Source: a virus
Taxonomy: Duplodnaviria > Heunggongvirae > Uroviricota > Caudoviricetes
IMG/VR virus record: IMGVR_UViG_3300033146_003879
Location: 118,990 to 182,989 of that record
Length of the DNA stretch: 64,000 nt
Strand: one strand, 5' to 3'
In this document: one piece after another, positions 5,145-63,062 of the stretch
Numbering within the stretch: position 1 is the first letter of the stretch
How the letters are laid out: each line of letters starts with the position of its first letter
Made by a program: the position numbers and the translations under genes
The notes under the pieces: generated by a model
Databases searched by the model: none
What the model saw: only the letters and a program-made list of their open reading frames with translations
Told to the model about the DNA's origin: nothing

Positions 5145-5230
5145 TGTACTCTCCATTATGTACGTTAACGTCAAAACACAGTTATTATAGATACTGTAGT
5201 GTTGGTAAAAAGGAGGTTCTGTGTAACCCA

Positions 5231-15200: not shown

Positions 15201-17101
15201 TTAACTGAATCAGGGTACACAGAAGATCTTCTGTTTATCAGCTCATAAAGAGCGGTAAACATCTGATCAATATACACAAGACTATCTTTTCCTGGTATTG
15301 TTGTGGTAGCCTCGTCTTGTGGTACTACTGGCCCTAACATTGTTGGAAATAGGTCTTTGTATGGCGCCGATGGGGTACCTCCCCACTCCTCTATGGCGTC
15401 GTAGGTTACGTTTGATAAGCGGGTTGCACCACCCGAAAAGAAACTTCCTCCAGACCCCGTCGACATAACGATGCTCGTCTCCCCTGTATGGAGAAAGTAG
15501 TCGAGATAATCATCGAGGTTTATTACTGTTCCATCAAGGAATGTTATCTTTTTCTCAGTAACAGTAAACATAGGTAAGAATGTGTCCTTCATGTATGCTG
15601 TACCGTCGCCAGGGTCAGGTGCACCTGTGTTGTGGTACAGGTAAGGATTGTTCTTATGGGAAGGTTTGTAGATGTCCCAAACTGGTACTTTCAGGCTTGG
15701 GTCAAACGTAGGATCTAGTTCTGTTGTTCCAGGCGCCATATTTGCTATAGCGTGTCCTAGTGATGCTGGTATGAATGCAAATTGAGCACTGGATGATGAT
15801 CCGTTTAAGTATTCGAAGTTTGTGTTTCCGGTTGAGGTTACGGTAGGGGTGTCGAACATTGATTTTTGTACCCCTTCTCTAGCAACAACAAATCCATAAG
15901 TTCCTGTATTTATGAAGTTAGCGTCGTATTTGGGGTGACCGTTTATCTCAGTGCTTGTGAGTTCGCCTGACACATCCCCTCGAGAAAACAAGAAGGGGTG
16001 GTGTCTTCCGTACGTAGGAACATCACCGTCATCAAGAGGTAGTTGATCATCAAATGAAACAGGTCTACCCTCAAACACAGGAGGAAACGCCGATGCTCCA
16101 GGGATCTCTATTCGGACACTACGTGGTTTTATTGTGGCTATGTAAGGTTTTTCTTCTCGGTTCTTCATGAATGTCATGTTGAGAGGGGTGGTCAACAAGG
16201 TGGATGGTGGTACTACCTCAGGGAATATCTTAACGTGAAGCGGGAATAAACCGTCATTAAACGTGCGTGCTGACCCAGCTGTAACAGACCCTAGTGCAGA
16301 TAACAAGTCACCTACAGTCATACTTGCAATGTCACACACAATGCGAATTGTAGTATACCTCTTTTTATTGTCAATAAGAACAGGATCCTCAACAAACGTA
16401 CCGTGCTTGTCTGCCTCAGTATTGTGCTCAACGATAATCGAGATGTTGTGATGTACTGCGGTCGTAAATATATCAGGGTTAGCACCCCCCTCATCAACGT
16501 ACAACATAAGAACTGTTTCTGCGTCGAAAGGAGATGGTTCGTCAGGTGATAGAGGTATCGCATGGTAGTATTCACCGTAACCTCCGAGCCCGTAGTTAAG
16601 AATCAGGGTGTAAGCGTCAGCTGTGTCAATAGATCCTGAAGAGTCCCAGTTACTTGCTGCCGCAAATCGAACCGGAACATATTGTAAGAGACGGCTGCCA
16701 GGAACACTTGTTCCGATAACACCAGAAAGGTCTCCCGGTTTCCATACTCGGATATTCACATCGCGGTCTTTCTTGTAGTAAGGGCTTCCGTAGGTCGCTT
16801 CCGGTGGGGGAGGAACAGCCGCAGGATGTCCCACAGCAGTTGCGCTAGGTTCACTTTGAGCGCTCATATACAGTTGGATCTTATCGAGGAACAACCTATG
16901 CTCAAGGCTTGACACCTCACTTTGGTTAATCCCATGCATTAGGCTAACCATCCGAGAATAAGCAGAACTACCGTAGAGCTCCGATTGACGAACGGGGTCA
17001 CAGTCCTTGTAAAAAATACCGCTGTTCTTAATGTTGTTCTTTTTGTAATCGCGAGCCATGAGTCTCCTCCTTGTTGTCACATCGAAATTATAGTAGAACA
17101 A
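12287..17101 (-). CDS. giant structural protein (1604 aa)
   Basis: Uninterrupted 4.8-kb ORF. First gene of the minus-strand structural operon, downstream of an AT-rich divergent control region. Confidence 0.6.
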   Translation of the reverse strand: MFYYNFDVTTRRRLMARDYKKNNIKNSGIFYKDCDPVRQSELYGSSAYSRMVSLMHGINQSEVSSLEHRLFLDKIQLYMSAQSEPSATAVGHPAAVPPPPEATYGSPYYKKDRDVNIRVWKPGDLSGVIGTSVPGSRLLQYVPVRFAAASNWDSSGSIDTADAYTLILNYGLGGYGEYYHAIPLSPDEPSPFDAETVLMLYVDEGGANPDIFTTAVHHNISIIVEHNTEADKHGTFVEDPVLIDNKKRYTTIRIVCDIASMTVGDLLSALGSVTAGSARTFNDGLFPLHVKIFPEVVPPSTLLTTPLNMTFMKNREEKPYIATIKPRSVRIEIPGASAFPPVFEGRPVSFDDQLPLDDGDVPTYGRHHPFLFSRGDVSGELTSTEINGHPKYDANFINTGTYGFVVAREGVQKSMFDTPTVTSTGNTNFEYLNGSSSSAQFAFIPASLGHAIANMAPGTTELDPTFDPSLKVPVWDIYKPSHKNNPYLYHNTGAPDPGDGTAYMKDTFLPMFTVTEKKITFLDGTVINLDDYLDYFLHTGETSIVMSTGSGGSFFSGGATRLSNVTYDAIEEWGGTPSAPYKDLFPTMLGPVVPQDEATTTIPGKDSLVYIDQMFTALYELINRRSSVYPDSVKRTELLINPETVSAVGFSIEVTDLASDLNNIHVDRWKRISPTTYTLPLIPLLLGTPSPTTPVYVGAILPTGFINIITPNAHGAEPKAYVVTDILGATKRSTYIGNVRDPGVNVGNFRSGGTIIGTNGAITTTNSGEGLPPFTPLPQQAIMRRPLPALESPEHGLVGDQFTGYSSIYSSLNLFLGGSTKRIYGGVNETKIEHTGDTATGYSIHFGDISDTISITHEPQASMHVVLSDLLSNLSMGQATTIAINDKSSGARLGGQAGDLVVDATVNSIYTTAVAGSDGTNGHDQRAFGRYNEASLLRRTVFTSAATNIDTYINVQHVLESLSDYSPPPAHDTLTIDTFTRFRTLLRKTYSTSLVQTYLKRTLNRSLPDAMVDNFTVDVDYYTDLKLSSSARGNCAKNRSVLFSAEYILALVYGISYESLTSTTYGDYITATTTTEKFYPAIESSRAATYTSAPQYDIAHIALFNPSIIATKTDATTDPTSASDTFVFNPIQLNTVPNTDTNPTSEKYRMSTYYREIDSPDSDLGSGSFAQSLGLLSKIKLAGATSTANKTKVFPFAMITLPVYAVSEVSPGVSRKYFNVDAANYIKKVTLIRSTPGVYAAGETRVDITNLYKGTERTVLDLGLTKYVADRDDSLGRNKDIVAYPPLAEAAKDYSATFIRQQYDASVQDSSGEFHVLQLADPTISSVDGTRETTLETMTMNDTLSDLSYYPDVSSPLIITRTATDIVFEDNNVLVSNPDMYTPPVPGKATLHTIAMAVSDSVLRELTFEQIAVDIKLNTPSTATDPLNLDHEIEISPINAFADLSLGISLEIDLVDDLVDVLHDHGLVLGTDPTVLSDDFTAPYSGITRAAIKVGDTAADHTQWSDAGSIPGLSVPITVSIGYLPLYFHDTDADLVPYSTIQDAIMYSADTENKFACTVNSGLLTAQNSDEFASQERTTVRPGKVVITQRMRNVKIYSTVKKGS

Positions 17102-17294: not shown

Positions 17295-17570
17295 AGTCCC
17301 CAAATCAACGTAACTACCTGATAATACTACATGCACTTGGGGACTACTCGGGGACTTACTCTGATATTCGGGGACTTATTCCTCCTTTGCAAAGTAGCAT
17401 TAGTTGTATACTTTATTTAGTATCACAAGTGATACGTTAGGTTTACTGTAGTATACAATCCAAATAATTAAACGTCTTGTGTTCGTGTTTTTGTGTATTT
17501 CTGTGCAATGCTAGTCCCCAGATTTGCCGAGTAACTCCCCGGATCTTGGAATAACTCCCCAAATTTACCC
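17295..17570. promoter_or_regulatory. divergent control region with about 7 GGGGACT / AGTCCCC repeats
   Basis: agtcccca at 17295 and 17513, ggggact x3 at 17337-17385, actcccc at 17544 and 17564. Lies between the starts of 12287..17101 (-) and 17721..20115 (+). Confidence 0.45.
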
Positions 17571-17720
17571 TTCTGTTTTTCGCCACTTTATCCTCTTGTT
17601 TATTTTTGTGTGCGGCATTTTAATTAGACGCATATTTAATCAACAAATTATTTTTAATCAACCAGTACTTCCCCTTGTTATATACCCTATAATTAGAGTG
17701 ACGTTATTTTGGAGGCATAA

Positions 17721-20115
17721 AATGCATAATGTAAAACCGTATCAAGTTAGAAGACAAGCGGATGGTGAGCTCCACCCTGTAGCTATAACGGAGAGGCTAC
17801 TCGCTGTTCGTGACAAACAGTACTCAAGCCCTGTATTATTGCTTCGAGAACAACCCTACCTGCTTGATGGAACACCTACTGTTGCTGTGACACGTGTGTT
17901 AGCAGTGAGTTCACCACTAACAGAGGTTGCTCCTACGGCCGTTGTTCCTATAGAGTCCTTTGTTGTTAGTTACACAGAAGGCATTATATACCTGAACGAG
18001 TCTGAGGTCCCTACCGGAAGTGATGTAAGTGCTGCTTTATATATAGTAGAGTATAGTGGGCTAGGTACACTCGTCAGCACAAGAGATATTCTCAGCCGAG
18101 ACGCTGATGCGTCAAACGCGAGTGACACAAATAGTGCTCTCCAGCGCTTTAACGTAACAGATTCTTACAAACTGGACCCCTCATCATATACGGCGTCTGC
18201 ACAAACAACAGCAGACTCAGTCAATGATGTCTTCTCCTTCGTCCTCTCCGGGGTATATATAACTGTTGCGCGCAATTCTACGGTCTCGTTTATGGAGATG
18301 GATAGATCCACAGCAACACTGAACGCAGTAGCAATAACATCAGACGCGATACCTAATCTAGCAGCCTCAAACCCTGCAGATATATGCATCATATCAGAGT
18401 CTGCTACTGCAATACACGACGGGCTTGGCGGCTTACACTTATTTACCTTGTCAGGAACCTCTTCCGGGACAGCGCGCCGCCTCAAAGTAACATCATTTAA
18501 ACTAGGCTTTACTCCGATAAAACTTGCGGTATTATCACCAGGGAACGACTCTATTATTGTGACATATGTCATGGGTAACGGTACTGGTGCTTATTCCACA
18601 GGGTATTTGCGCTTAACATCCGGACTTATGTTGTTTGATCAAGTAAACATAGACATAAGTAGTCACATAGATACCGGGTTTATTGATATACTCAGTGTGT
18701 CCTCAATACAAGGACCAAACACAACATTTAGTATTTTACAGAGCACCGGAGGAACAACAGTAAGCGTGACGTCGCTGTACTTCAATAGTTATATTTACGA
18801 CGCTCCTGCAGGAGAAGTTATAAGAACAGGAACCCTACCATTTTCAGGGAACATGTACTCCTTCGCCGCCGGCTACGGACCCGACGGCTCTGTTGTAGTA
18901 GCAACGTTTGCCTCATTTACTATGGGACCAAATCTCTATACTACAGCAATACACCCAGATGGAGAGTGCACTACCCTAACCTTCCCGCTGATGCCGAACG
19001 AACAGATTGTGAGCACCACCCGATCACACGGACTCTACATAGGTGTTACTCGCTACCTCGACGGCTCGGATGTGCACTTAAGAACAGCGTTATTCGACTT
19101 TGCAAATTATGAGATAAGCCCCCCTTTAGACATAAATGCATCCGTCACAATCGGTCCGGTTGCACACAGAGAGAACCTTTCTGTATTTACCTATGAATAC
19201 GGAGGCTTTGCCCAAATTATTTACTACGACAACCGCACAGCGAGTAACACGAAGTACGTCCTTGACTATGCGCGGTTCGACACAAAAAGAGACGACTGCG
19301 TACATCCTGACGGACTGCTCCAATGGGAAGGCGACGTCATTAGTGACGAGACTTACATAGACGATACAACACCAGGAGTCCAACTTACTCTGCTAACAAC
19401 ATGTAAAGACACAGAGATTGAGGCAAATTCAGCAGGAACAATCGAGGCTACCGTAACAGGAAAACAAGATGTAACAGGGGACGTCGCGAGCTTCAGAGTT
19501 ACTGCAACTATTCATAATGATGGAATGGCAACAACTATTGTAGGGACCCCAACAACAACAGTACTCGCGAGCACGGCTGGTGCTACAGGCTGGGTAGCGC
19601 GCGCATACAATGCAGGAAACTATCTTATTATCTTTGTACATGCAGACGGCTCTACAAACAACGTACACTGGTCAGCAGAAGGGTTTGTTGTTAAAACAGA
19701 ACTACCTGCAGTTTACACACCAGGAAGCCTTGCTGTATGGGAAGGAGAGACGACAACAGATGAAACTTACGTCAACGATACGACACCAGGAACAAAGTTC
19801 ACATTAGTGCCGGCATCAACAGTAGATACACTAGCGAGTGGTGAGATTGCCAACGTATCAGCTGTAGTTACTGCCGCATCTGTTTCTGGTGAAGCTGCAA
19901 GCTTTAGAATAGAAGGGACTGTGCAGTATGACGGATCCACAACAATTCTTATAGGAACACCTACCGTGTCTGTTCTCGCAGCGTCTGCCGCCGCAGTTAC
20001 ATGGAGAGCACGTGTTTACTTCGATAGCAATCAGATCGTTATTTATGGACACGGGGACGGTAGTGGCGGCGACACTATTACTTGGAACGCCAAAGGTATT
20101 CTTATTAAGTTCTAA
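17721..20115 (+). CDS. tail-fibre / receptor-binding-like protein with internal ~130-aa domain duplication
   Basis: Start at ATG 17721 is preceded by ggagg. Two C-terminal repeats (TYIDDTTPG...WSAEGFVVK and TYVNDTTPG...WNAKGILIKF). Ser/Thr/Gly-rich composition typical of fibres. Confidence 0.5.
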
Positions 20116-20163: not shown

Positions 20164-20985
20164 TTAAGGTAGATGGTAATACACACCATCTACGTCTATG
20201 TCTATAAGGGCTTCAATTCGCCCTATAACCACTCCGGTCGCTACTGGACTATACGTAACAACCTCGTATGAGTCAGAATAATTGTAATCCAGAGATGTTA
20301 CGGTAAATGATAGATTATGCCTATCCCGCAGCATATCAACTGTCCTATCACCTAGTCGGGCTGGCATGCTCACGTTCGATTCTTTATTAAGTGTAAAGTA
20401 TAATGTAAGACTACTCATATCAGACACAACTGCGAAATACATAGTAAGTATGTAGCCGGAATAACGACCTACAAGCTCACACTCCATCACAGACCCGAGT
20501 AGTAGGTCACCGTCTTTCCTTAGAACCTCTTCACAAACAACATCTGTTATAGGCACGTCCGTGTCATCCGACTCCTCAGAATCATCAGCGACAGCGTCAT
20601 CATCAGCCGACTCCTCAGAATCAACAGTCTCATCGACACCACCAGCCGACTCATCAGAATCAACAGTCTCATCGACACCATCAGCCGACTCATCAGAATC
20701 AACAGTCTCATCGACACCATCAGCCGACTCATCAGAATCAACAGTCTCATCGACACCACCAGTAGCCTCCTCTGAGTCTACATCAGCAACTTCATCAGCA
20801 ACACAGATCGAGTCAATACACTCGAGCCTTGAATCACAGGTGTTATTATCGTAGCACTTTTCATGCCATCCTCCAACATCACCTGATCCTTTCGCCGCGT
20901 CTCCACCGCAGCTAACAACAAACATGTTCATCAAAACCACCAACAAAACCACCAACCACCCCTTTCTTCTTGTAACCTTAGTCAT
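20164..20985 (-). CDS. secreted lipoprotein with Cys-rich N-domain and acidic 13-aa tandem repeats (GVDETVDSDESAD x ~5)
   Basis: Start MTKVTRRKGWLVVLLVVLMNMFVVSCGG has GGAGG 7 nt upstream. Signal peptide plus lipobox VVSC. Repeats are visible in both protein and DNA. Confidence 0.65.
   Translation of the reverse strand: MTKVTRRKGWLVVLLVVLMNMFVVSCGGDAAKGSGDVGGWHEKCYDNNTCDSRLECIDSICVADEVADVDSEEATGGVDETVDSDESADGVDETVDSDESADGVDETVDSDESAGGVDETVDSEESADDDAVADDSEESDDTDVPITDVVCEEVLRKDGDLLLGSVMECELVGRYSGYILTMYFAVVSDMSSLTLYFTLNKESNVSMPARLGDRTVDMLRDRHNLSFTVTSLDYNYSDSYEVVTYSPVATGVVIGRIEALIDIDVDGVYYHLP
20569..20763. repeat. 5 x 39-bp tandem repeat inside the lipoprotein gene
   Basis: Unit ccgactcMtcagaatcaacagtctcatcgacaccaYcag repeated head-to-tail. 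Generates spurious shadow ORFs on both strands. Confidence 0.8.
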
Positions 20986-21225
20986 AACAACCTCCTGTTT
21001 TTTAACGTGGTTGTCTCCACATTGATATATACTACACAATAAAACCAGAAGTAATGGCTCAGACTACGCTTGCCTAGGCCTGTACGTAACTTCACGAGGT
21101 CTTTCTCCTCGCACACAGACATCTCAACACCTCCTCCTTTGTTGACATACCATACATATTCTTATACCTCAAAAACGCAGTTTTTATATCAAAAAAAGAA
21201 ACCCTGCAACTTAAGTAACAGGGTA

Positions 21226-24158: not shown

Positions 24159-24499
24159 TGGTGGAGGCGGCGGGAATCGAACCCGCGTCCTAAAAACCTT
24201 CAAGATAGATACTACATGTTTAGTCCGTCTTTACTAAAATCTTCGGCGCCAACGGACAGGCCCCTCGAAGTTTCCTACGCTAAAGTTTTCGTGGCATCTC
24301 CCACATAGAAAGGATCAACCCTTAGTCTCACAGTTGTGCGCCCCAATTGGTGTCGTGAGCACCCCTCCAATAGGACGGCAGCTTATGCTGCTATGAGTTC
24401 AGTTTTTGCGTCTCTGAACGTGCCGCTTTTTACGAGGCCCGCGGCGCCTCGACATGCATCTATTCTCTCCGCGAATCCAGTCGAAACCAGGTCGCCCCC
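24159..24499 (-). ncRNA. ssrA: tmRNA (ssrA-like), about 341 nt, phage-encoded
   Basis: Minus strand reads 5' GGGGGCGACCUGGUUUCGACUGGAUUCG ... GGACGCGGGUUCGAUUCCCGCCGCCUCCACCA 3'. The 7-bp acceptor stem (GGGGGCG / CGCCUCC) carries a G3.U pair. T-arm GCGGG-UUCGAUU-CCCGC with terminal CCA. Internal putative tag frame ends ...ACU GAA CUC AUA GCA GCA UAA (TELIAA*). Confidence 0.8.
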
Positions 24500-29992: not shown

Positions 29993-30367
29993 TTACTGAT
30001 TCTTAATGTATGTCTTGATGACTTCGAGCGGTGCGCCGCCAGAAGACGTAACGTAATAAGACGGGGACCATAATTTCTTGTGCCGTCTTAATTCCGGGTA
30101 TAAAGCTCTGAGCTTTTTGCTTGTTGGCCCCTTAACTGCCTGCACTATAGAGGAGATTGACTCTGTCGAAGGGTATTCAATAAGGAGGTGGACGTGATCT
30201 AAATCGCCGTTACATTCCTCAAGCGTGATCCCCTTCTTCTTGAACGCCTGTCTTGCATAATATGCGAAGTCTCCAAGTATTCTCGGAGAAAGCACCTTTC
30301 TCCTATACTTCGTTACCAATACGAGGTGTGCATGCAAGCTGCTTATGTTTGTTCTTGACTTCCTCAT
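29993..30367 (-). CDS. tnpA: IS200/IS605 Y1 (HUH) transposase TnpA
   Basis: LHAHLVLVTKYRRKVL ... DHVHLLIEYP (HuH) ... LWSPSYYVTS (catalytic Tyr). Confidence 0.85.
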   Translation of the reverse strand: MRKSRTNISSLHAHLVLVTKYRRKVLSPRILGDFAYYARQAFKKKGITLEECNGDLDHVHLLIEYPSTESISSIVQAVKGPTSKKLRALYPELRRHKKLWSPSYYVTSSGGAPLEVIKTYIKNQ

Positions 30368-30389
30368 AACCCTAAGTATACTCTTTTGT

Positions 30390-31508
30390 ATGAAAGTGTC
30401 AAGAGCATATAAATACCGCCTTTACCCTACGCGAGAACAAGAGATTAAGTTGTCTCAGTTCGTTGGAAACAATAGATATCTCTGGAACTTCGTTCTATCC
30501 GCTCTCGAAGGCAAGAAGTGGGACCGATTCGCTGTTTCCAAACAACTTCCTTCACTTAAGTCTGAAATACCATTCCTTAAAGAATCTCCGTCTCAAGCGT
30601 TTCAACAATTGTTAATTGATATGGATGCTGCATTTAAGAGCTTCTTTCGGAAGAAACACGGATATCCGAAGTTTAAGAAACGCGGTATGCACGACTCTTT
30701 TAGAATACCGGTTGTGAAGTCCCCTGAATCTATAAACAAGAATAGCTGCGTCTGGATACCAAAATTGGGTTTTGTGGAACTGCGTTTGTCGCGTGAGGTG
30801 AGAGGAGAAGCGAAGTCTATCACTGTGTCTCGGAGAGCGGGAAAATGGTTTGTCTCAATATTGACGAAAAGCGAGATGCAGGAAACAGGCGGAAAGACAG
30901 GAAATAGTGTAGGAATTGATCTCGGCGTTAAACACTTCGCGACAACGTCGGGCGGAAAGCATATACATGCTCCAGAGGAAAGAGTGCGCTATTTAGAGAA
31001 GAGAATAGAGCGCATGCAGAGGAAAGTCAGTAGAGCGAAGAAAGGATCAAGCAACAGAAGCAAGTTGCGTCTTAAATTAAGTAGACTCCACTTAACTCTC
31101 GCGAATGTGAAAGAAGACTTCTTGCACAAGGTGAGCACACAGTTAATCAAGAACCACGATTTACTTGTGCTCGAAGACCTTGGTGTAAAGGAGATGACAG
31201 AAGCAGGAGCGAGAAAAGCGAAGTTAAATAGAGCAATCTTGCGTCAAGGTTGGTATAAATTTAGGACTTTACTTGAGTATAAGAGTATGTGGTATGGCTG
31301 TGCCGTAGTGTTCGTCCCGCCTCAATTCACGAGTCAGCGCTGTAGCGAATGCGGGAATATAAACGCAGCAAACAGAAAGACACAATCGTCATTTAAATGC
31401 CTTTCGTGTGGCCATACTGAAAACGCTGATATAAACGCAGCTAAGAACATTTTCACCGTCGGGCAGACGGGTAGAGCCTTTGGAGACGCCGCGCTAGCGG
31501 GTCGATGA
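30390..31508 (+). CDS. tnpB: TnpB (OrfB, RuvC-like, RNA-guided nuclease family)
   Basis: N-terminus KVSRAYKYRLYPTREQ, GIDLGVKHFATTSGG (RuvC-I), C-terminal zinc finger CSECG...CLSCGH, DINAAKNI. Confidence 0.85.
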   Translation: MKVSRAYKYRLYPTREQEIKLSQFVGNNRYLWNFVLSALEGKKWDRFAVSKQLPSLKSEIPFLKESPSQAFQQLLIDMDAAFKSFFRKKHGYPKFKKRGMHDSFRIPVVKSPESINKNSCVWIPKLGFVELRLSREVRGEAKSITVSRRAGKWFVSILTKSEMQETGGKTGNSVGIDLGVKHFATTSGGKHIHAPEERVRYLEKRIERMQRKVSRAKKGSSNRSKLRLKLSRLHLTLANVKEDFLHKVSTQLIKNHDLLVLEDLGVKEMTEAGARKAKLNRAILRQGWYKFRTLLEYKSMWYGCAVVFVPPQFTSQRCSECGNINAANRKTQSSFKCLSCGHTENADINAAKNIFTVGQTGRAFGDAALAGR

Positions 31509-32180: not shown

Positions 32181-32598
32181 TCTTCTCCTCCCATTTTCTC
32201 AACTGTTTCATCAAACTTCCATCAACATCAAGGCGTCCGTCACCCATGGGATTTCCAAAACTGAACCACCCACCATCGACGGTACGAGTAAATGTTAGCG
32301 GGGTATTTTCTTCATCATCCAGATGACCATATACTAGCACGTCAGTTTCCTTTGCATACAATCCCGAGCACTGGTCAACCTCTTGTTTCCACAGCTCTCT
32401 CAGATCCTTTCGCGCGGTATTAAAGGAAGCAACGGTTTGTATATAGGCCCGGTTGTGCCGGGTCATTTTGACCTTTCCGTCGTCGAAGAAGTCATACTCC
32501 TCCCCTACCAACGGGACAGGCATTAATTTTCTAACTCCCATAGTGTTCCCCTCCATCTCCGTGGTTAGTAACAGCCGCTCTAATACCCTCTGCGACAC
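32173..32598 (-). CDS. hypothetical protein (141 aa); part of it is duplicated at 34156-34400
   Basis: PLVGEEYDFFDDGKVKMT...SGLYAKETDVLVYGHLDDEE recurs in the downstream ORFs. Confidence 0.4.
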   Translation of the reverse strand: MSQRVLERLLLTTEMEGNTMGVRKLMPVPLVGEEYDFFDDGKVKMTRHNRAYIQTVASFNTARKDLRELWKQEVDQCSGLYAKETDVLVYGHLDDEENTPLTFTRTVDGGWFSFGNPMGDGRLDVDGSLMKQLRKWEEKSG

Positions 32599-33511
32599 TT
32601 CCGATAGCTATAACACCATCGATAAGGAGCATGCCGAGATGAATTAGTGTTTTAACGCTATCATGCTGTACCCCAGACACAGGTAAAGAAGGGTTAACCT
32701 CTTTCCCTGACACCGCGAGCTTCCCATCGTCTGCCGCAGAGAATTCAACATCAACAAGAATATCTTTGACACCCTCTCGAACAGAGTCAAGAACAGCAGG
32801 ATCTTTGATAAACAACTCAACATCCTTTCTTGTAGCGGGAACAGGCTCCATATCCCACTCTTCAATGATATTCCTCTCCGGCTTTATCTTAACCATGATA
32901 CGCTTACCACTTCTGGTGAGCATACCAAGAGGCGCCTTCAATACGACACCTTCTGCGGGATACTCTTTGTTCTCCGCAATTAACGACTTGAAGTCGTTGT
33001 TGACCAGGGCATCTGCTTCGGCAAGACTCATGTTTCCGAGAAACGGAACAACAAGAATCCCTATACGGGCCGCAATGTTTTCTATATCTTTTCTCTGCAA
33101 CCACCAGCCCCCTACACGAATATCAAACAGAATGAAGGACACATCTTTCTTTATGTAGTTCCCTCCTTTCTGAATCTTCACACCATACCCTTCTCCATAG
33201 AGACAGACGACCTGTCCACCCTCAAGAGTAAACCCTTTCTTAAGAGTCTCCGGAGTAAACAACTCATGCAGCTTCTTGTCAAGGTGCCCCGGCAAGATAG
33301 CTTTATCCGTCTTACCCCGGATATCGACTTTCTCTCCATCCCAGATAACACGAATGTTCGTGCCGTCTATTTTCTCTGTTGCTTCCCACAGGGCGTTCTC
33401 GAGTACCTCAAATTCAGGCATTGCGTACGCGCCTCTTATGAGAGGCTTATTTTTCATATGCATAGCCCTCTTCCACAAAGAGTTTATCTTTGTATACTTT
33501 CCTCCGTTCAT
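32531..33511 (-). CDS. ATP-dependent RNA ligase, Rnl2-like
   Basis: Motif I EKIDGTN (compare T4 Rnl2 EKIHGTN), motif IV EGVVLK, motif V IMVKIKPE. Start MNGG is preceded by GGAGGGAGAAGG. Confidence 0.7.
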   Translation of the reverse strand: MNGGKYTKINSLWKRAMHMKNKPLIRGAYAMPEFEVLENALWEATEKIDGTNIRVIWDGEKVDIRGKTDKAILPGHLDKKLHELFTPETLKKGFTLEGGQVVCLYGEGYGVKIQKGGNYIKKDVSFILFDIRVGGWWLQRKDIENIAARIGILVVPFLGNMSLAEADALVNNDFKSLIAENKEYPAEGVVLKAPLGMLTRSGKRIMVKIKPERNIIEEWDMEPVPATRKDVELFIKDPAVLDSVREGVKDILVDVEFSAADDGKLAVSGKEVNPSLPVSGVQHDSVKTLIHLGMLLIDGVIAIGSVAEGIRAAVTNHGDGGEHYGS

Positions 33512-33524
33512 CCTTCTCCCTCCT

Positions 33525-33806
33525 CTAAACACTATCAATAAACTTGAGAAGCTCCTCTTTCTTTTTCTTGACCTCTGGAGTCAGTTCCACCTCGTGTCTC
33601 CTGATCCTCGGGAACACACCGTACTCATCTTCATAGATACTATACATTATACCCAGACCTACAGCAGGCTCTACGTATCCAAACAGATGAGAAGGCAGGG
33701 ATAACGTCACTTTCCCAAACCTAACGGAAACGAACTCGTCACTGTACGAAACTATTACACCTGACTTCTCTGCTATCAGGTTAATCATCTGCTTTCCCGT
33801 CCACAA
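33525..33806 (-). CDS. hypothetical protein (93 aa)
   Basis: ORF. Confidence 0.35.
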   Translation of the reverse strand: MWTGKQMINLIAEKSGVIVSYSDEFVSVRFGKVTLSLPSHLFGYVEPAVGLGIMYSIYEDEYGVFPRIRRHEVELTPEVKKKKEELLKFIDSV

Positions 33807-43807: not shown

Positions 43808-46442
<2,635 letters not shown>

Positions 46443-57833: not shown

Positions 57834-58130
57834 TCAAGAAGGATTAGATGCATTACCGACAATAGCGAACAGATCTTTTGCGGCGATGAGCAAGCATGTC
57901 TGACCATCGACGACTACCTCTCTACCACTGTAGCTATTGTACAGCACTATATCATCTTTCTTGATAGGAAGTTCAACATCATCTGCGGCGTCCATAACAA
58001 TACCCTCTGGGATACCAGGCTTGTCATCATCGTCAATTGATACTGGTATGATAATACCACCAGCTGTCTTTCTCTCATCTGCCTCTGGTTTGTCAACACT
58101 TAGCAATACATGTCCGTTCAATGGCTTCAT
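57834..58130 (-). CDS. groES: co-chaperonin GroES (Hsp10) homologue
   Basis: MKPLNGHVLLSVDKPEADERKTAGGIIIP ... KKDDIVLYNSYSGREVVVDGQTCLLIAAKDLFAIV. Compare E. coli GroES KSAGGIVL...VGDIVIF..YG..EV..D..E.L...E.DILAIV. Confidence 0.75.
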   Translation of the reverse strand: MKPLNGHVLLSVDKPEADERKTAGGIIIPVSIDDDDKPGIPEGIVMDAADDVELPIKKDDIVLYNSYSGREVVVDGQTCLLIAAKDLFAIVGNASNPS

Positions 58131-58224
58131 AGCAATCTCCTTATAGTGTTTTATTAAAATAACACAGCCCAAAAAAACTGACGCACGGCATTTAGCTGTG
58201 CGTCATAGGTACTGTTTTACAATT

Positions 58225-59322
58225 TTACTTATTAGACTTACGTCTATTACAGCTCTTACAAAGCACCTGGCAGTTAGCGGAGATGGTTTTCCCACCTTCG
58301 CTCCACGGTGTAATGTGGTCAGCCTCCATGTCCTCTATGATAAACTTCTTCTTGCACATAGAACATTTCTTTTTCTGTTTCTCATACACAGCTATTTTCA
58401 TAGCAGGTGTGAACGCACGGATTGATAAGTAGCGCTCATCTCCGGTAAGAACGTAGGAGTACATGCCGCGTTTTGCTGTGACGTCATCATCAAGTATTAG
58501 TCTAGCGATCTCGACTTCGAGGGCATCGGTGTCATAGGTGTTATCCTTGAACGCATTGTACAGGTAGCCCCACTCAACACCCTTCATGAATTTTGTTCTG
58601 CCCTTATTGTATTTCACTGGAAAAGTATCCTCTACCCATGTCACTACCGATTGAAAATACCTCCACAGTGCTCCTGCGTTTTGTTCTCCTTGGTGTTTTG
58701 CCATGTACGCTTCGATATTATCATCCGATATCCATCGAATCGCAGTCTCGAGATAATCTTGCCGAATAGCGGATCCAGTCAGGTACACACTTCCGATACG
58801 GTGTGCTGTGCACCCGGTCTTGCTGAAGCGCGCTTTAGCAGCAGTTACCCACGGCCCAGAATAAACAGCGTTGCGCAACTCTTGATCAGTAAGCTTCATA
58901 CCTGAGATATTAACCGTTTTAAACCACTCAAGCTTGTCGCTGTCCCCACCCTCACAGAAGTACACCATTAACTCGTAATTAAGAACCTCTTCTTTCTTAT
59001 CGGATGGGAGGTTGCTAAACAACATACCCTCAACAGAGAAGTCATCGTTAACATACTGGCATATAGACAACGTGCGCTGCTGACCATCTATTATCTCGAA
59101 TGATTCTTCTGAATTCACTGCCCAGTAGATAGCACTGAGCGGGAACCCTTTCATAACAGTGTCAATAACAGCAGCGCGCTGCTTATCATTATACACAAAC
59201 TCTCTCTGATAAGGAGGCCTGATGTCAAGTTTTCCATCTAACCCAACAACACCCCCTTCGTCAGCATCCTTGAATCCATGAACAACATCTCTTACTGTAA
59301 CTCTTTTTAATTCAACTCGCAC
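58225..59322 (-). CDS. DUF262 (ParB-like, DGQQR) + HNH nuclease fusion, GmrSD / type-IV-restriction-like
   Basis: N-terminal EIIDGQQRTLSI. C-terminal CSMCKKKF...ADHITPWSEGGKT...NCQVLCKSCNRRKSN (HNH). Confidence 0.65.
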   Translation of the reverse strand: MRVELKRVTVRDVVHGFKDADEGGVVGLDGKLDIRPPYQREFVYNDKQRAAVIDTVMKGFPLSAIYWAVNSEESFEIIDGQQRTLSICQYVNDDFSVEGMLFSNLPSDKKEEVLNYELMVYFCEGGDSDKLEWFKTVNISGMKLTDQELRNAVYSGPWVTAAKARFSKTGCTAHRIGSVYLTGSAIRQDYLETAIRWISDDNIEAYMAKHQGEQNAGALWRYFQSVVTWVEDTFPVKYNKGRTKFMKGVEWGYLYNAFKDNTYDTDALEVEIARLILDDDVTAKRGMYSYVLTGDERYLSIRAFTPAMKIAVYEKQKKKCSMCKKKFIIEDMEADHITPWSEGGKTISANCQVLCKSCNRRKSNK

Positions 59323-60415
59323 TTGATTCTCCTTTTCTTCTTATTAAAACTCTAGCGTACGGGACAACTACTACCTCTTCTGAGACCATATACAAGTCTC
59401 CGTCCACCGCTCCTCTTTTTTGAACATCCCTACGGTACTCCCTGTGCTCTACCGTATAGGGGCGTACCCCTATTTCCGTACCAGATCCTGCTATCCCTAA
59501 CCCAATAACCTCAAATTGTTCAGGATTATACTTAGATAGGAACGTCACAGGGACACCCATGACACCGTCATAGTCCTCTGGTATGTCAGAAACCTTGTCG
59601 ATATTTATAGCATCGTAGTTATAATATCTTGTATACAGCAGAGGATCATATTTACGGTACATTAATAGGTCTACGTGCCTCTTTGTAATATCCAGGTTTG
59701 TAAACCAGCAAATGTTTCCAAACTTTCGTAATTCGTAATCTGAACCGCCTCTCTCCCGCGCACCGCCAACAGGAGAACGGAAACTCATAGCACCACTTCT
59801 ATACCCTAACCATACTCTGTCTTCCTTTATTAATGCAAATATCGCTTTATACGTCAACGCATTCATGTTACCTATAATCAGGAACTGTTTGTTATTTGAA
59901 ACAAGCGCATGCATGAACTCTCTGAACAAAGAGAATGGAGGATTTGTAACAACTACGTCAGCCTCACGCATTAAAGCTAAGCACTCTTCACTGCGAAAAT
60001 CACCATCACCAGCAAGAGCGGTAGCCACATTACCATCATGCAGTAACAGGTGTTCGACGTCAAATATGTTTACCGACCCGTCACCGGTGTAATCGCGTAC
60101 CTCTGTGATCTCAATCTTTATAGGTGCTCCCCGGTCACTCTCTGCTATACCTTGCATATCGCTAATAGAAACCTGATCCCCGATTATAGGAGAGCTGACG
60201 TAACTTGTAGCTATAAGCTTCTTCAGCCCGAGTATATTAAATTGCATAGCGAAGTACTTGAAAAAGTTACTCTCGAAAGGGTCGTCTGCATTACAGTACA
60301 CAGTTTTCCCTCTAAAGTAATGCTTATAGTGCTTTAGCTCCTTCTCAATATCTGATAACTGAGTGTAGAACTCGTCATTCTTATTCTGCTTCGCATTCCG
60401 TAAACTAGCGTTTGC
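59312..60415 (-). CDS. N6-adenine DNA methyltransferase (NPPF motif IV)
   Basis: NDEFYTQ near the N-terminus. VVVTNPPFS. Size and layout fit gamma-class adenine MTases. Confidence 0.65.
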   Translation of the reverse strand, partial: ANASLRNAKQNKNDEFYTQLSDIEKELKHYKHYFRGKTVYCNADDPFESNFFKYFAMQFNILGLKKLIATSYVSSPIIGDQVSISDMQGIAESDRGAPIKIEITEVRDYTGDGSVNIFDVEHLLLHDGNVATALAGDGDFRSEECLALMREADVVVTNPPFSLFREFMHALVSNNKQFLIIGNMNALTYKAIFALIKEDRVWLGYRSGAMSFRSPVGGARERGGSDYELRKFGNICWFTNLDITKRHVDLLMYRKYDPLLYTRYYNYDAINIDKVSDIPEDYDGVMGVPVTFLSKYNPEQFEVIGLGIAGSGTEIGVRPYTVEHREYRRDVQKRGAVDGDLYMVSEEVVVVPYARVLIRRKGESSAS

Positions 60416-60462
60416 CATAATTAACACATCCTCAATAAAATGTTGTATAAGATACCATCCAC

Positions 60463-60478
60463 TATCTTATACCACAAA
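60463..60478 (-). promoter_or_regulatory. recurrent promoter-like motif, copy 14
   Basis: cttataccacaaacaac, 35 nt upstream of the MTase start. Confidence 0.45.
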
Positions 60479-60499
60479 CAACACTCAGTTGCACTACAC

Positions 60500-60868
60500 C
60501 TATCTTTTACCATCACCGCGTTTCTCTCGACGCCTGCGAGCTTTCTCTAACGCGTCATACCGCAAGTGATCTAGCTGGCACATAGCACGCAGCCTATCAT
60601 CAGCAACCTCTTCATTCTCTTCATCATGATCAAGGTGAGCAACAGTAAGCACCACCTTCACATCTTTCCCTTTGTCCCAAATATCATTGTCAATGTGAAG
60701 CTTATAGTGCATTGGTAACCACTGTCTAAATCCATCAGTCCCAATAACGCTGCGTACGGTATCCCCGTTCTCTAGCCCGCAAACTTCGCATCTATTGTTT
60801 GCGCGTTCCAGTATGCGTGCTCTTGTTTCCTTCCAGTCTTTTGGGTACCTATTGTAGTCAATTGGCAT
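60500..60868 (-). CDS. HNH endonuclease (start trimmed to MPIDYNRY)
   Basis: NRCEVCG ... VAHLDHDEENE ... LRAMCQLDH (C..C...H..H..N...C..H pattern). Confidence 0.6.
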   Translation of the reverse strand: MPIDYNRYPKDWKETRARILERANNRCEVCGLENGDTVRSVIGTDGFRQWLPMHYKLHIDNDIWDKGKDVKVVLTVAHLDHDEENEEVADDRLRAMCQLDHLRYDALEKARRRREKRGDGKR

Positions 60869-61469
60869 TCTTTCTGTCACTCCGGATGTGGTTGTACCAG
60901 GCCTCAATGATGTACGCGTCGTACAGTGAATTGTGTTTCTGCACCCCTCTCTCCTCGGCGTCGCCAAAGGTAGGTGTATGCAGGTCAACTACATCTTCCC
61001 GCGTGACATCGGGGTCGATGCCGGACATCTTCATAAGAGTAGCTATATCAAAGGGGATATAATATACTTGTTTCGGCAAGTTCGGGTAACCATTCTCGTA
61101 TGTTGCGAAGATCTTGTTGAATAACACCCAATCGTAAGCGAGGACATCGGACCACATCTCTACATCCTCTCCTGCTAGATCGTCACGCAGCCAGTACCCA
61201 AATGCATCACGTACTGTATCGGTATTTCCACACACTGTTGTGTGTACGCCATTCGTATGAACTCCTGAAGTGCCAACTCTTCCTAGAAGCGTAAGCTTAT
61301 CAAGTACGTTCTTTTGCAGCCAGTCATTTATATGGGACTTATCATAATCAGTGAACTCAGCGTAGAACGTGTGTCCTGTCTCCGATACGATACCTATAGA
61401 TATAGGCGTTGTGTCTTGTCTCAATCCAGTAAACTCCATATCAAAAAAAAGCTTAAGTCGCTCACTCAT
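60858..61469 (-). CDS. DnaQ-like DEDDh 3'-5' exonuclease
   Basis: Exo I LFFDMEFTGL. Exo III HNSLYDAYI. Start MSERLK after GGAGG. Confidence 0.7.
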   Translation of the reverse strand: MSERLKLFFDMEFTGLRQDTTPISIGIVSETGHTFYAEFTDYDKSHINDWLQKNVLDKLTLLGRVGTSGVHTNGVHTTVCGNTDTVRDAFGYWLRDDLAGEDVEMWSDVLAYDWVLFNKIFATYENGYPNLPKQVYYIPFDIATLMKMSGIDPDVTREDVVDLHTPTFGDAEERGVQKHNSLYDAYIIEAWYNHIRSDRKNAN

Positions 61470-61902
61470 TATCAAGTTCCTCCAAAGCAGACTCAAGCAC
61501 TCCTGTATAGACTTCTCCTGTAGCATTTCTCACAACAGTATAGGTAGCTGCATCTCGTGTGAACCGGATGGAACTGACGGTAACCTTGTGCCTCATCACA
61601 ATAGGAGGGTCACATGCTGCATCTACGTACACTAACTGCTGTACCTGGTTACCTACGCGAAACTTGTGAAGCAGTCCCCTACGAACAGGCGTGTCTCTGA
61701 CGTTTTCCACAGGAACAGAGTCGTGGGTTGTTTTTGGAGTACGAACGATATCCTCTTCTTTAAGTGTGCAGGTAGCTCCTGTATAATCAACTAGCTCGTA
61801 GAAGTTTGACACCCCGTCATAGACAATAAAGCATATTGTCCCTACGAAAGGTGAATACTGTTTTTGAACGACGTCATTAAATGAAAAAGAAGGTACATGC
61901 AT
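61462..61902 (-). CDS. hypothetical protein
   Basis: Start MHVPSF after GGAGG. Confidence 0.4.
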   Translation of the reverse strand: MHVPSFSFNDVVQKQYSPFVGTICFIVYDGVSNFYELVDYTGATCTLKEEDIVRTPKTTHDSVPVENVRDTPVRRGLLHKFRVGNQVQQLVYVDAACDPPIVMRHKVTVSSIRFTRDAATYTVVRNATGEVYTGVLESALEELDNE

Positions 61903-62008
61903 ATTACCTCCTCTCACCTCTTTACTTGCCGATTTACTCATGATTAACCTCCAAGGATCATTTACTGGCTGCAGGAGAGATTATTACATCTCCCCTGCAG
62001 TGTCAAGT

Positions 62009-62641
62009 TTATAGTGATGCTAACAACTCTTGGATATCGAACTTCGATATGTCGTTCTCACCAACCGCTTTAAGCTTCTCATTTTGCATCTCAGCGTAAG
62101 GAGCCTGAGCAATCGCCTCCTTCTCCGCTTCTTTTGCAGTAGCATACCACCCAACAGGATACCCGTCGACATATCCGCAGAATGGACGTTTAAATTGAAC
62201 ACCTTCGTAAATAACAGTTATGACTCTTCCGTCAACAACTCGACGTACCGCTGCCTTTGTATCACCATTACCATCTCTTGCATGTATAGCATCAGATAGC
62301 TTTCCAAATACACCCAGTGTGAGTCCTCTGCTAGAGGTTGAATTGGATAAAGCGGTAAAAGTGACGCTCCCATCTGCGTACGCTCTTTTATATATCCTCG
62401 GTGCTACCTTCTCTTTGTTAATTAGAGTACGATCTTTCTGATTAGCAACAATACAGTTATCTTCCGAATAGACACCTAATCGGCTCCTTCTACGTACAGT
62501 AGGTGAAACTATGCCCTTACTATTCTTGTTAAACCACTCCTCAAACACAGAGAAGTCTTCCCACTCCGAAGACACACCTACCCCATTCTTGAGCTGCCTC
62601 CAACGAAGTATTAGTTTCTTTCCCTTACCTTTCTTCTGCAT
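62009..62641 (-). CDS. hypothetical basic protein (DNA-binding?)
   Basis: Start MQKKGKGKK after GGAGG. Lys/Arg-rich N-terminus. Confidence 0.4.
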   Translation of the reverse strand: MQKKGKGKKLILRWRQLKNGVGVSSEWEDFSVFEEWFNKNSKGIVSPTVRRRSRLGVYSEDNCIVANQKDRTLINKEKVAPRIYKRAYADGSVTFTALSNSTSSRGLTLGVFGKLSDAIHARDGNGDTKAAVRRVVDGRVITVIYEGVQFKRPFCGYVDGYPVGWYATAKEAEKEAIAQAPYAEMQNEKLKAVGENDISKFDIQELLASL

Positions 62642-63062
62642 CGGGATCCTCCCCCATTGAAACAAATATCTCCCTGTCTATCTCAGCAACAAGATCAATT
62701 ATCGAGCCCCTATACTGAACAGCACGTTTCCGGAAATCAGACAACTCTTCATCAGGATCACGTTGAGGTATATTATCCGGGACATCACGGTCATAGGAAT
62801 CTGCCTCAAGTATTGACTCGACCCATTGATTGGCTATACGGAATGGATCTTCATGCATTCCGTCCCACACATAGAAGGAGTACAACGTGTCGGATTCTTC
62901 GGAAGGTACCGCCGGTAAGACACGGCCAAGGAGGTTATTAATCTCGCTTGTATACAGTGCCCCTTCTGGGCTGAGAAATCCTCCCATGTAGTTACTGTAG
63001 CCTCCGTCTACTGATAGCACTGCCCGCATGTCTTCTACGGACTTCATCTTAACAAATAGCAT
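62625..63062 (-). CDS. hypothetical acidic protein (145 aa)
   Basis: ORF. Confidence 0.4.
   Translation of the reverse strand: MLFVKMKSVEDMRAVLSVDGGYSNYMGGFLSPEGALYTSEINNLLGRVLPAVPSEESDTLYSFYVWDGMHEDPFRIANQWVESILEADSYDRDVPDNIPQRDPDEELSDFRKRAVQYRGSIIDLVAEIDREIFVSMGEDPDAEER

Follow-up and report, generated by a model that had tools for sequence, protein, structure and literature searches.

Two adjacent minus-strand genes in the 64,000-nucleotide stretch of viral DNA analyzed here (the window) encode an EcoRI-family DNA methyltransferase (M) and, directly downstream, a nuclease that combines a DUF262 domain with a zinc-bound HNH domain (R). We consider it likely that M and R are an autonomous two-gene restriction-modification (R-M) cassette that a phage, probably a large and novel one, acquired and placed under its own transcription program. 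The cassette is real and ordinary in kind: a further example of a system that is known but has hardly been studied. An earlier reading of the sequence alone had placed four genes here, and open reading frames were indeed present at those positions, all on the minus strand (Table 1); among the four genes (M, R, a second HNH, and an exonuclease), only M and R form a unit. The contig itself was taken as a probable large, novel phage because it has PHROG matches, numerous ORFans, genes arrayed on one strand, and promoters in repeated copies. Structural genes were not recognized within the 64-kb window, and nucleotide and protein searches revealed no close relatives: neither megablast with the region as query (50,697 phage records) nor tblastn with a 1,604-amino-acid ORF gave a match, and the exonuclease together with a flanking 184-amino-acid protein retrieved only two distant exonuclease homologues, without synteny. 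Contig records encoding the R protein of the window itself were not found either.

Table 1. Coordinates of genes and signals in the M-R region of the window
Feature	Position	Strand	Basis or detail
Intrinsic-terminator-like hairpin	58171..58205	-	8-bp G+C-rich stem UGACGCAC/GUGCGUCA, then U7
R: DUF262, helical middle region, C-terminal zinc-bound HNH, 365 aa	58225..59322	-	Pfam, PADLOC
M: EcoRI-family N6-adenine DNA methyltransferase, 368 aa	59312..60418	-	PF13651, PADLOC MTase_II
Inverted repeat, 14 nt, 93% complementary, 8-nt spacer	60441..60476		One arm is the promoter motif
Promoter-like extended -10 motif TGTGGTATAAGA (TG-n-TATAAG)	60465..60476	-	Last of the 14 copies by plus coordinate
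Free-standing small HNH endonuclease, 122 aa from ATG	60500..60868	-	phrog_1571, E 4.6e-24
DEDDh 3'-5' exonuclease, Rv2179c/RNase AS type, 203 aa	60858..61469	-	PF16473, phrog_2259

M is a member of the EcoRI_methylase family, whose Pfam profile it matched over the full length with an E value of 1.9e-127 and 425.7 bits (gathering score used as cut-off, 26.4 bits); the PADLOC profile PDLC03297 was matched with an E value of 1.3e-109. The motifs NDEFYT (residues 14-19) and NPPF (residues 159-162), reported before, are both present, and all columns invariant in 30 M homologues are kept, including DEFYT 15-19, C42-N43-x-D45-D46-P47, and T158-NPPF-162. By the two profile matches and its NPPF, M is the SAM-dependent methyltransferase with a (D/N)PP(Y/F) motif expected of a Type II R-M system. 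A sequence search of the PDB with M gave no match. The gene had been given as 59312..60415; the gene is there, but its best start is the ATG at 60418, which is preceded by GAGGA 9 nt upstream and is preferred over an alternative in-frame GTG at 60427 in the ORF listing. An orphan phage anti-restriction methyltransferase was ruled out, since an intact R lies directly downstream.

In R, Pfam detected a GmrSD_N/DUF262 domain (residues 34-154; E 1.2e-19) and an HNH domain (residues 320-365; E 9.7e-14). The C-terminus matched PF01844 (HNH) and PF14279 (HNH_5), and no Pfam match to DUF1524 was obtained. Residues 1-365 aligned with positions 1-372 of the 372 positions of the PADLOC profile REase_II (PDLC03418; E 2.1e-127), a profile whose basis may be predictions in REBASE and not characterized enzymes. 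The catalytic residues of the DUF262 domain, which were inspected for mutations, proved to be intact (DGQQR, residues 79-83). Indeed, every column invariant across 145 homologues is kept, including DGQQR, DH...N, and the four zinc cysteines (D79-G-Q-Q-R83, C320, C323, D335-H336, N350, C351, and C355), and the HNH residue N359 is also present. R thereby qualifies as the separate, adjacent endonuclease with an intact nuclease active site that is typical of Type II systems. An AF2 model of R calculated from 145 sequences of two subclades reached a pLDDT of 81.8; an earlier one from 37 close homologues (pLDDT 57.5) was discarded. The model predicts a ParB/sulfiredoxin-like NTPase fold for the DUF262 domain, and the best structural matches of the C-terminus were the HNH domains of McrA and Cas9; the sequence search of the PDB with R returned HNH domains only. 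Since the invariant DGQQR lies in a ParB/sulfiredoxin-like domain, nucleotide binding by R is suggested, and the classical Type II behavior of requiring Mg2+ only, with no NTP, may not apply to R. A free-standing HNH homing endonuclease was ruled out for R because R travels with M.

The M stop codon TGA (59314-59312) overlaps the R start codon, a GTG at 59322, by 11 nt, in agreement with the overlap noted in the sequence-only reading. The ribosome-binding site of R, AAGGAG, is located at 59334-59329, and R appears to be translationally coupled to M through the overlap. The motif TGTGGTATAAGA occurs in 14 copies at ≤1 mismatch in the window, every one on the minus strand, and at 2 mismatches 20 matches were found versus 6.6 expected by shuffling. 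Copy 14, numbered by rank in plus-coordinate order, lies in the 72-nt gap that separates the stop of the small HNH gene (60500) from the ATG of M (60418), 47 nt ahead of this ATG. We infer that this copy is active as a promoter; from its position past the end of the HNH gene, it can serve M and R, whereas neither the HNH nor the exonuclease gene lies downstream of it. The proposal that copy 14 drives the whole set is thus retained for M and R, with the motif as a putative promoter, and is dropped for the other two genes, both of which lie upstream of it. Copy 14 alone is part of an inverted repeat (arms 60441-60454 and 60463-60476), a partner that the flanks of the other 13 copies lack, and the repeat may act as an operator or as a promoter for divergent transcription. 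At the other end, a hairpin starts 20 nt past the R stop codon and folds with -22 kcal/mol (z -3.3; 0 of 200 shuffles equally stable); it had been missed by a consensus scan because its loop is longer than 8 nt. Copy 14 and the terminator-like hairpin are the putative left and right boundaries, respectively, of the M-R transcription unit.

Among 69 loci with a gene for an R homologue (63 in genomes of many phyla, 2 on IMG/VR contigs, and 4 on contigs carrying protein P0005), an EcoRI-family M was encoded immediately upstream of R on the same strand in 62. Two further loci have M 401 and 971 nt upstream of R, and in the remaining five the upstream sequence is too short or R is truncated. The distance from the M stop to the R start was -26 to +23 nt at 55 of the 63 junctions measured. 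Apart from M and R, no gene is common to the window and any of the 69 loci. A natural M-R fusion of 688 amino acids (P0385) contains EcoRI_methylase, GmrSD_N, and HNH in one chain. On plasmids of cultured bacteria, M and R are annotated side by side, and the plasmid search gave no Bifidobacterium match as long as the full R. The full pair is present in 4 of the 50,697 records of the phage collection, which represent three distinct phages (MT835503, MT838873, and Flavobacterium phage laban6-1, gp07/gp08), and M adjoins R in every one of the four phage records with a coverage of R of 80% or more. A block of 2,275 bp is 100% identical between a contig that is phage-like by PHROG matches (L001) and bacterial defence-island contexts that carry SIR2, Piwi, a Type I S subunit, and MvaI_BcnI; it consists of M-R with 57 nt on the 5' side and about 53 nt on the 3' side and contains no other gene. 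Members of the R family are about 65 to 71% identical across phyla, and the DUF262-HNH family comprises 447 clusters at 50% identity (E ≤1e-30) and thousands at 90%. By this distribution, the M-R cassette moves among bacteria, plasmids, and phages and behaves as a selfish, horizontally mobile unit. The earlier suggestion of a compact restriction module in which the MTase protects self-DNA thus holds up for the M-R core, for which the pairing, the PADLOC matches, the fusion, and the identical block are strong comparative evidence; the HNH and the exonuclease are not members.

The described relative of the window system is likely BanLI of Bifidobacterium animalis subsp. lactis, which was compared by its published description only and which was the sole biochemical study of the DUF262-HNH nuclease family found in our literature search. 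BanLI is assigned to Type II by REBASE class and consists of an EcoRI-like M of 41.7 kDa, followed by an R of 43.5 kDa (PMC3990576); the window has the same layout as far as BanLI is known from the descriptions, with an M of 368 and a DUF262-containing R of 365 amino acids. The authors aligned M.BanLI with M.EcoRI, and the R homologue of CECT8145, a strain of the same subspecies, is annotated "DUF262 domain-containing protein" (PMC13091528). In Escherichia coli, BanLI lowered P1vir plating about 10-fold, restriction by R.BanLI being weak, and methylation by M.BanLI raised transformation 1.8-fold (PMC3990576). Whereas the window copy belongs to what is probably a large lytic-type phage and has a phage promoter, BanLI is chromosomal and adjoins an integrase. 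The site of BanLI, RTC(m6A)GG, is asymmetric and is methylated on one strand (PMC3990576), which calls for caution in assuming an AATT-type site for the window enzymes. AATT occurs in the window at 0.48 of the zero-order and 0.79 of the Markov expectation, no more extreme than TATA or CTAG, and in 569 kb of cassette-carrying loci AATT is not avoided and no common avoided palindrome stands out. Palindrome avoidance in the window and these loci was therefore rejected as uninformative for the recognition site.

With the EcoRI system, the window shares the PF13651 methyltransferase with its NPPF catalytic motif and N-terminal DEFYT block, and M is 45% identical over 313 amino acids (E 3e-87) to the methyltransferase beside R.EcoRI on E. 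coli plasmid pU90-3. In contrast, R.EcoRI is a 277-amino-acid PD-(D/E)XK enzyme unrelated to the DUF262-HNH nuclease, and the order of the genes is R then M, the reverse of that in the window; the pair is, for both reasons, not an EcoRI system proper. M is also extended at its C-terminus by about 60 amino acids, a segment conserved among members of its clade (G306 to R356), and GAATTC specificity is therefore not to be assumed.

R resembles GmrSD, BrxU, and SspE in its N-terminal DUF262 domain with a DGQQR-type motif and in the arrangement of a ParB-like NTPase domain and a His-Me nuclease fold, so that the earlier label "GmrSD-like" was right at the level of domain and fold. It differs from them by ending in the canonical zinc-bound HNH (PF01844) rather than DUF1524, by being about 200 amino acids shorter, and by having a methyltransferase partner, which implies restriction of unmodified DNA. 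R was not assigned to this group, since DUF1524 is absent and M accompanies R in 62 of 69 loci and in one fusion. Two virus-borne pairs were also compared. Flavobacterium phage vB_FspS_laban6-1 (NC_048834) encodes a PF13651 M and a DUF262-HNH R in overlapping genes, 39.5% (M) and 40% (R) identical to the window proteins, but its 387-amino-acid R belongs to a different subclade, and this phage is a temperate siphovirus of 43 kb whose structural module contains the pair as an opposite-strand insertion; DUF262 is absent from the main text of the paper describing it (PMC7077304). Chloroviruses, lytic viruses whose own DNA is premethylated, encode pairs of methylase and endonuclease, as summarized in a passage of PMC7248222 citing Agarkova et al. 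2006. By that passage, they are a precedent for virus-borne R-M directed against host DNA, but they are viruses of eukaryotic algae, and their enzymes are unrelated and the nucleases packaged in the virion.

Could the cassette be a decaying or silent passenger, with an inactive R and an M that still serves for anti-restriction? The weak restriction by R.BanLI (PMC3990576), orphan M genes of the same clade in phages, and a locus with a truncated R and no detectable M (L067) point in this direction. However, the window R is full length, its invariant residues are kept, and a good ribosome-binding site precedes it; a promoter motif and a terminator belong to the M-R unit itself; and the G+C content of M-R (0.43 to 0.45) agrees with that of the window (0.455). 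We regard a silent passenger as improbable. Still less probable is that R is a modification-dependent, GmrSD-like Type IV nuclease acting on competitor DNA, with M serving another use such as anti-restriction. The structurally characterized DUF262 nucleases (BrxU/GmrSD, SspE, and DndI) do all sense modified DNA (PMC12707154), and mycobacteriophages such as Marchy carry a solitary M of the same clade with no R gene downstream. Against this stand the obligate pairing of M with a downstream R (62 of 69 loci), the gene overlap, the fusion, and the joint 2.3-kb transfer, which together are the signature of a toxin-antidote R-M system; the canonical HNH in place of DUF1524; and the adjoining M in the four phage records. 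Moreover, a nuclease that needs the mark of its own partner would be suicidal. An anti-restriction methylase with a nuclease directed against host or competitor DNA, the second possibility raised in the sequence-only reading, is no true rival of the R-M cassette but one possible use of it.

The small HNH ORF spans 60500-60988 with a likely start at ATG 60868, and the gene would suit the class of free-standing HNH homing endonucleases better than R does. The exonuclease ORF spans 60858-61526; its likely start, ATG 61469, coincides with the end coordinate given earlier. The exonuclease matched PF16473 (Rv2179c-like; E 7e-9), phrog_2259 (E 4e-41), and, in part, NCBIfam RNase_AS, and the DEDDh motifs FFDMEF, WSDVLAYD, and HNSLYDA are found in its translation. 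That these two genes, M, and R are one nuclease or exclusion module is very improbable: the four are adjacent on one strand, the exonuclease and HNH genes overlap by 11 nt just as M and R do, and in L001 a gene whose product shares the Rv2179c-like Pfam domain lies about 700 nt ahead of M, but that product has no detectable similarity to the window exonuclease at E 1e-5, homologues of the window HNH or exonuclease occur at none of the 69 loci, the promoter motif separates HNH from M, and the identical mobile block holds M and R alone. Being upstream of copy 14 and never with M-R elsewhere, they are neighbors only, and a role as accessory subunits was rejected. The terminator-like hairpin closes the M-R unit directly after R.

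For the R-M cassette, we propose that M is transcribed and translated first and would place a SAM-dependent m6A mark on a specific DNA motif, with R translated by coupling through the overlap. Since M is made first and R is coupled to it, protection would come no later than the nuclease. R, with its NTP-binding DUF262 domain, helical region, and zinc-bound HNH, would cut DNA that lacks the mark; the obligate methylase partner argues for methylation-sensitive rather than modification-dependent restriction. Virion DNA would carry the methylation of the preceding infection cycle, and in a newly infected cell R would preferentially hit the unmethylated host chromosome, co-infecting phages, and plasmids. 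A bolder extension, to which we give a rather low probability, is that DUF262-HNH nucleases and EcoRI-family methylases constitute a large, almost unstudied class of restriction systems that is methylation sensitive and yet nucleotide dependent, with the ParB-like NTPase as a switch, a clamp, or a means of site-to-site communication, and that stands in its mechanism between Types II, III, and IV. This would allow a single methylase that modifies one strand of an asymmetric site, as in BanLI, to protect replicating DNA in a Type III-like manner. The large lytic-type phage would then have domesticated M-R as a weapon against host or rival DNA, equipping the pair with a promoter and a terminator of its own and with an operator-like palindrome that occurs only there.

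Complete phage-borne R-M systems are far rarer than orphan phage methylases, and a phage-borne R-M system can alter what survives in a co-infected cell, be it host DNA, rival phages, or plasmids. The identity of the 2.3-kb block in a phage-like contig and in defence islands indicates recent exchange and supports the view of phages as vehicles of defence genes. The DUF262-HNH family is abundant and barely studied, the functional work found being one modest study (BanLI), and a GmrSD-like R with an obligate methylase is a clean test case for a ParB-like NTPase in the restriction of unmodified DNA. Genes of this kind, now labeled "DUF262 domain-containing protein", can be read as coding for the restriction subunit in R-M pairs.

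The ORF listing of the window gave four successive minus-strand ORFs from 58225 to 61526, and domain matches confirmed that they encode an m6A methyltransferase (M), a DUF262(DGQQR)+HNH nuclease (R), a small HNH protein and an exonuclease, as the sequence-only reading had it; its coordinates needed only minor corrections. M most plausibly starts at ATG 60418, with GAGGA 9 nt 5' of the ATG, and its length of 368 residues from this start is similar to that of the closest homologues (356 to 400 aa). The stop codon of M (TGA, 59314-59312) lies within the start region of R (GTG 59322), and the resulting 11-nt overlap has the pattern typical of translational coupling; a ribosome-binding site for R, AAGGAG, is located at 59334-59329. 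The motifs named before were all found, NDEFYT (residues 14 to 19) and NPPF (159 to 162) in M and DGQQR (79 to 83) in R, and the exonuclease has the DEDDh motifs FFDMEF, WSDVLAYD and HNSLYDA. A mutated DGQQR had been named as an argument against the proposed module, and the motif is intact. Indeed, R retained every column invariant in 145 homologues from two subclades, including D79-G-Q-Q-R83, C320, C323, D335-H336, N350, C351 and C355. M retained all columns invariant in 30 homologues (DEFYT, C42-N43-x-D45-D46-P47 and T158-NPPF) and also the clade-specific C-terminal block of these proteins, from G306 to R356.

Features of the restriction-modification locus and its surroundings (positions in the window)
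Feature	Position	Strand	Length	Description
GroES co-chaperonin	57834-58172, start ATG 58129	-		own ribosome-binding site; directly 3' of the R-M terminator
Terminator-like hairpin	58171-58205			20 nt after the R stop; 8-bp G+C-rich stem, then U7
R	58225-59322	-	365 aa	Pfam GmrSD_N/DUF262, E 1.2e-19, residues 34-154; HNH, E 9.7e-14, residues 320-365
M	59312-60418	-	368 aa	PF13651 EcoRI_methylase, entire profile covered, E 1.9e-127
Inverted repeat	60441-60454 / 60463-60476		14 nt	93% complementary; 8-nt spacer; one arm is motif copy 14
Promoter motif copy 14	60465-60476	-		within the 72-nt gap from small HNH to M
Small HNH	start ATG 60868 (most likely)	-		phrog_1571, E 4.6e-24
Exonuclease	start ATG 61469 (most likely)	-		Rv2179c-like; phrog_2259; RNase AS match partial

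M is a true relative of M.EcoRI, since it shares 45% identity (E 3e-87) with the methylase whose gene adjoins that of R.EcoRI on the Escherichia coli plasmid pU90-3, but it has about 60 additional conserved C-terminal residues, and its nuclease partner is entirely different from R.EcoRI. R has the same layout as the nucleases GmrSD, BrxU and SspE, in which a ParB-like nucleotide-binding domain is followed by helices and then a His-Me nuclease, but it differs from them in its C-terminal domain, which is a canonical zinc HNH and not DUF1524. A Foldseek search with the model of R ranked BrxU at the top with a weak score (E 0.0098), and R matched PDLC03418, a Type II REase profile of PADLOC, from end to end (E 2.1e-127); the profile may derive from a characterised enzyme or from REBASE predictions. 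Since DUF262 has an NTPase role in GmrSD, BrxU and SspE (PMC12707154, PMC8713573) and DGQQR is invariant, nucleotide binding by R is suggested. With 447 matching representatives (E<=1e-30) in a 50%-identity clustered library, and >8,000 clusters (90% identity) at E<=1e-20, the R family is abundant yet mechanistically unexplored. The only functional study fitting the M-R architecture that we found in the literature is that of BanLI, an R-M system of Bifidobacterium animalis encoded by BALAC2494_1402 and BALAC2494_1401, in which the gene for an EcoRI-like M (41.7 kDa) precedes that for R (43.5 kDa); the modification is single-strand m6A at RTCAGG, P1vir was restricted about 10-fold in E. coli, and methylation raised transformation 1.8-fold (PMC3990576). 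In CECT8145, another strain of B. animalis subsp. lactis, the homologue of R.BanLI bears the annotation DUF262 domain protein (PMC13091528). The window pair probably belongs with BanLI, to which it is likened through published descriptions and not through sequences. The kind to which the pair belongs is already listed in REBASE and PADLOC, BanLI is an example of it, and Flavobacterium phage laban6-1 provides a phage-borne precedent.

The genetic context of R was analyzed in 69 loci that have a homologue of R, drawn from 63 genomes (Gammaproteobacteria, Bacteroidota, Patescibacteria, Chloroflexota, Acidobacteriota, Spirochaetota, Bacillota, Actinomycetota and Rickettsiales), two contigs from IMG/VR and four others with protein P0005. 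An EcoRI-family M was encoded directly 5' of R on the same strand in 62 of the 69 loci and 401 and 971 nt upstream of R in 2 further loci; the other 5 had a truncated R or too little upstream sequence. The distance from the M stop to the R start was -26 to +23 nt in 55 of 63 measured junctions. The pair was present on plasmids of cultured bacteria, among them Macrococcoides, Aeromonas, Gordonia, Variovorax and Lactiplantibacillus, where its two genes have adjacent annotations, and in three phage genomes (MT835503, MT838873 and laban6-1, as gp07/gp08), and one protein, P0385, joins EcoRI_methylase, GmrSD_N and HNH in a single natural fusion of 688 aa. A reading of R as a Type IV nuclease is at odds with this genetic linkage to M. 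None of the 69 loci contained a homologue of any window protein other than M and R, be it the small HNH, the exonuclease or GroES, and therefore the functional unit consists of M and R only. Across the loci, the identity of M to its window counterpart correlated only moderately with that of R (Spearman 0.36, p 0.007); the means were 47% for M and 56% for R, and by this measure R is unusually conserved. Orphan methylases of the clade of M, full length and with the C-terminal extension, also occur in the temperate mycobacteriophages Marchy (gene 72; L074), Hami1 and Norz, with no DUF262-HNH gene nearby. Thus, phages carry both configurations, the orphan methylase and the complete pair, and the window has the complete one. 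Two further proteins, P0122 (632 aa) and P0143 (611 aa), are tandem double EcoRI-family methylases, a hint that some relatives may handle asymmetric sites.

The promoter motif TGTGGTATAAGA is an extended -10 (TG-n-TATAAG), upstream of which an A-rich element is loosely conserved. It has 14 minus-strand copies in the window; at 2 mismatches, 20 matches were found versus 6.6 expected. The position of copy 14 allows it to drive M and R and excludes the two genes upstream. The earlier claim that this copy drives all four genes is thus tenable for M and R, whereas the small HNH and the exonuclease lie 5' of it. No comparable inverted-repeat partner flanks any of the other 13 copies in the window, and the repeat at copy 14 may be an operator, or a divergent or antisense promoter, controlling the R-M unit. 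The hairpin behind R has a predicted fold of -22 kcal/mol (z -3.3). Because the G+C contents of M (0.427) and R (0.449) match that of the window (0.455), the nearest homologues are just 62% (M) and 71% (R) identical, and the cassette has a copy of the promoter motif that the element itself uses, it is no fresh arrival in this genome. If it were a decaying passenger, neither the perfect retention of motifs nor the dedicated expression signals would be expected. A single module of exonuclease, small HNH, M and R is at odds with both the promoter position and the comparative data, in which homologues of the first two are absent from 69 of 69 M-R loci, and these two genes, counted in the set by the sequence-only reading, have to be removed from it.

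Several other features of the window were recorded. A tmRNA gene with the tag peptide AKTELIAA* was predicted by ARAGORN at 24159-24499 (-). A transposase-like ORF at 30345-31508 (+; phrog_506, E 5e-108) is on the strand opposite to nearly all of its neighbours and probably represents an inserted IS element; GC skew is about zero in the 30-32 kb bin and strongly negative otherwise. A perfect TTGACA followed by a perfect 12-bp hairpin, CTGCAGGGGAGA-N8-TCTCTCCTGCAG, without a T-run, lies at 61969-62006 (-), just 3' of the stop of ORF 62009-62665 and 5' of ORF 61462-61941, and the 17-nt stretch of TTGACA and the first hairpin bases occurs once in the window. Tandem repeats of 39 nt (about five copies at 83 to 89% identity and one at 64%) are located at 20525-20782, in or near ORF 20164-21039. 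Further window genes encode an NAD-dependent DNA ligase (43808-45796, -; phrog_3869, E 2e-171), the best phage relatives of which are about 40% identical, and an RNA-ligase-like protein (32531-33538, -). Very large ORFs at 4-4761 (+; 1,585 aa), 12287-17101 (-; 1,604 aa), 17524-20115 (+; 863 aa) and 9929-11794 (-; 621 aa) had no match in Pfam and PHROG searches, nor did the 1,604-aa ORF in a tblastn search of 50,697 phage records; by its sequence, the element is of a very divergent lineage. AATT occurs 169 times in the window versus 352 expected (0.48 of zero-order), and TTAA, ATAT and TATA are not similarly low; with a Markov expectation the ratio is 0.79 (z -3.1), a modest deficit, and the bacterial loci carrying the cassette do not share it.

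Direct evidence for mobility came from a block of 2,275 bp that is 100% identical between L001 (6877-9151), a phage-like contig of a Bacteroidales MAG whose flanks match PHROG families for Dda-like helicase, DHFR and exonucleases, and three defence-island contigs (L002, L003 and L004) with SIR2, Piwi, a Type I S subunit and MvaI_BcnI as neighbours. The block begins 57 nt 5' of the M ATG and ends about 53 nt beyond the R stop, and this identity between phage-like and defence-island contexts marks, at the sequence level, a discrete cassette moved very recently between unrelated backgrounds. The large viral IMG/VR contig L006 (UViG_3300012662_000008, 166.5 kb) has an M gene (4809-5843) with three TGA codons in frame; at two of these the window M has an aromatic residue. 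The gene ends with TAA, and R is intact; this suggests a TGA-recoded (code 4-like) phage and not a pseudogene.

R-M systems follow an established toxin-antidote logic (Kobayashi-type). Because of this logic and the obligate pairing, fusion and joint transfer of the two genes, methylation by M would shield DNA from R, and R would restrict unmethylated DNA. The main proposal of the sequence-only reading, a compact phage-borne restriction module in which the methyltransferase protects self-DNA, therefore holds; pairing, fusion and joint transfer agree with it, and the protection step itself we infer. Since virion DNA would arrive in the cell already methylated, R would preferentially attack host or rival DNA after infection. 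Chloroviruses offer a precedent for such use, and in them the virion even contains the restriction enzymes (PMC7248222). The importance of the finding is moderate: the family is abundant and unexplored, its architecture is intriguing, and the identity between phage and defence island is a neat case of exchange.
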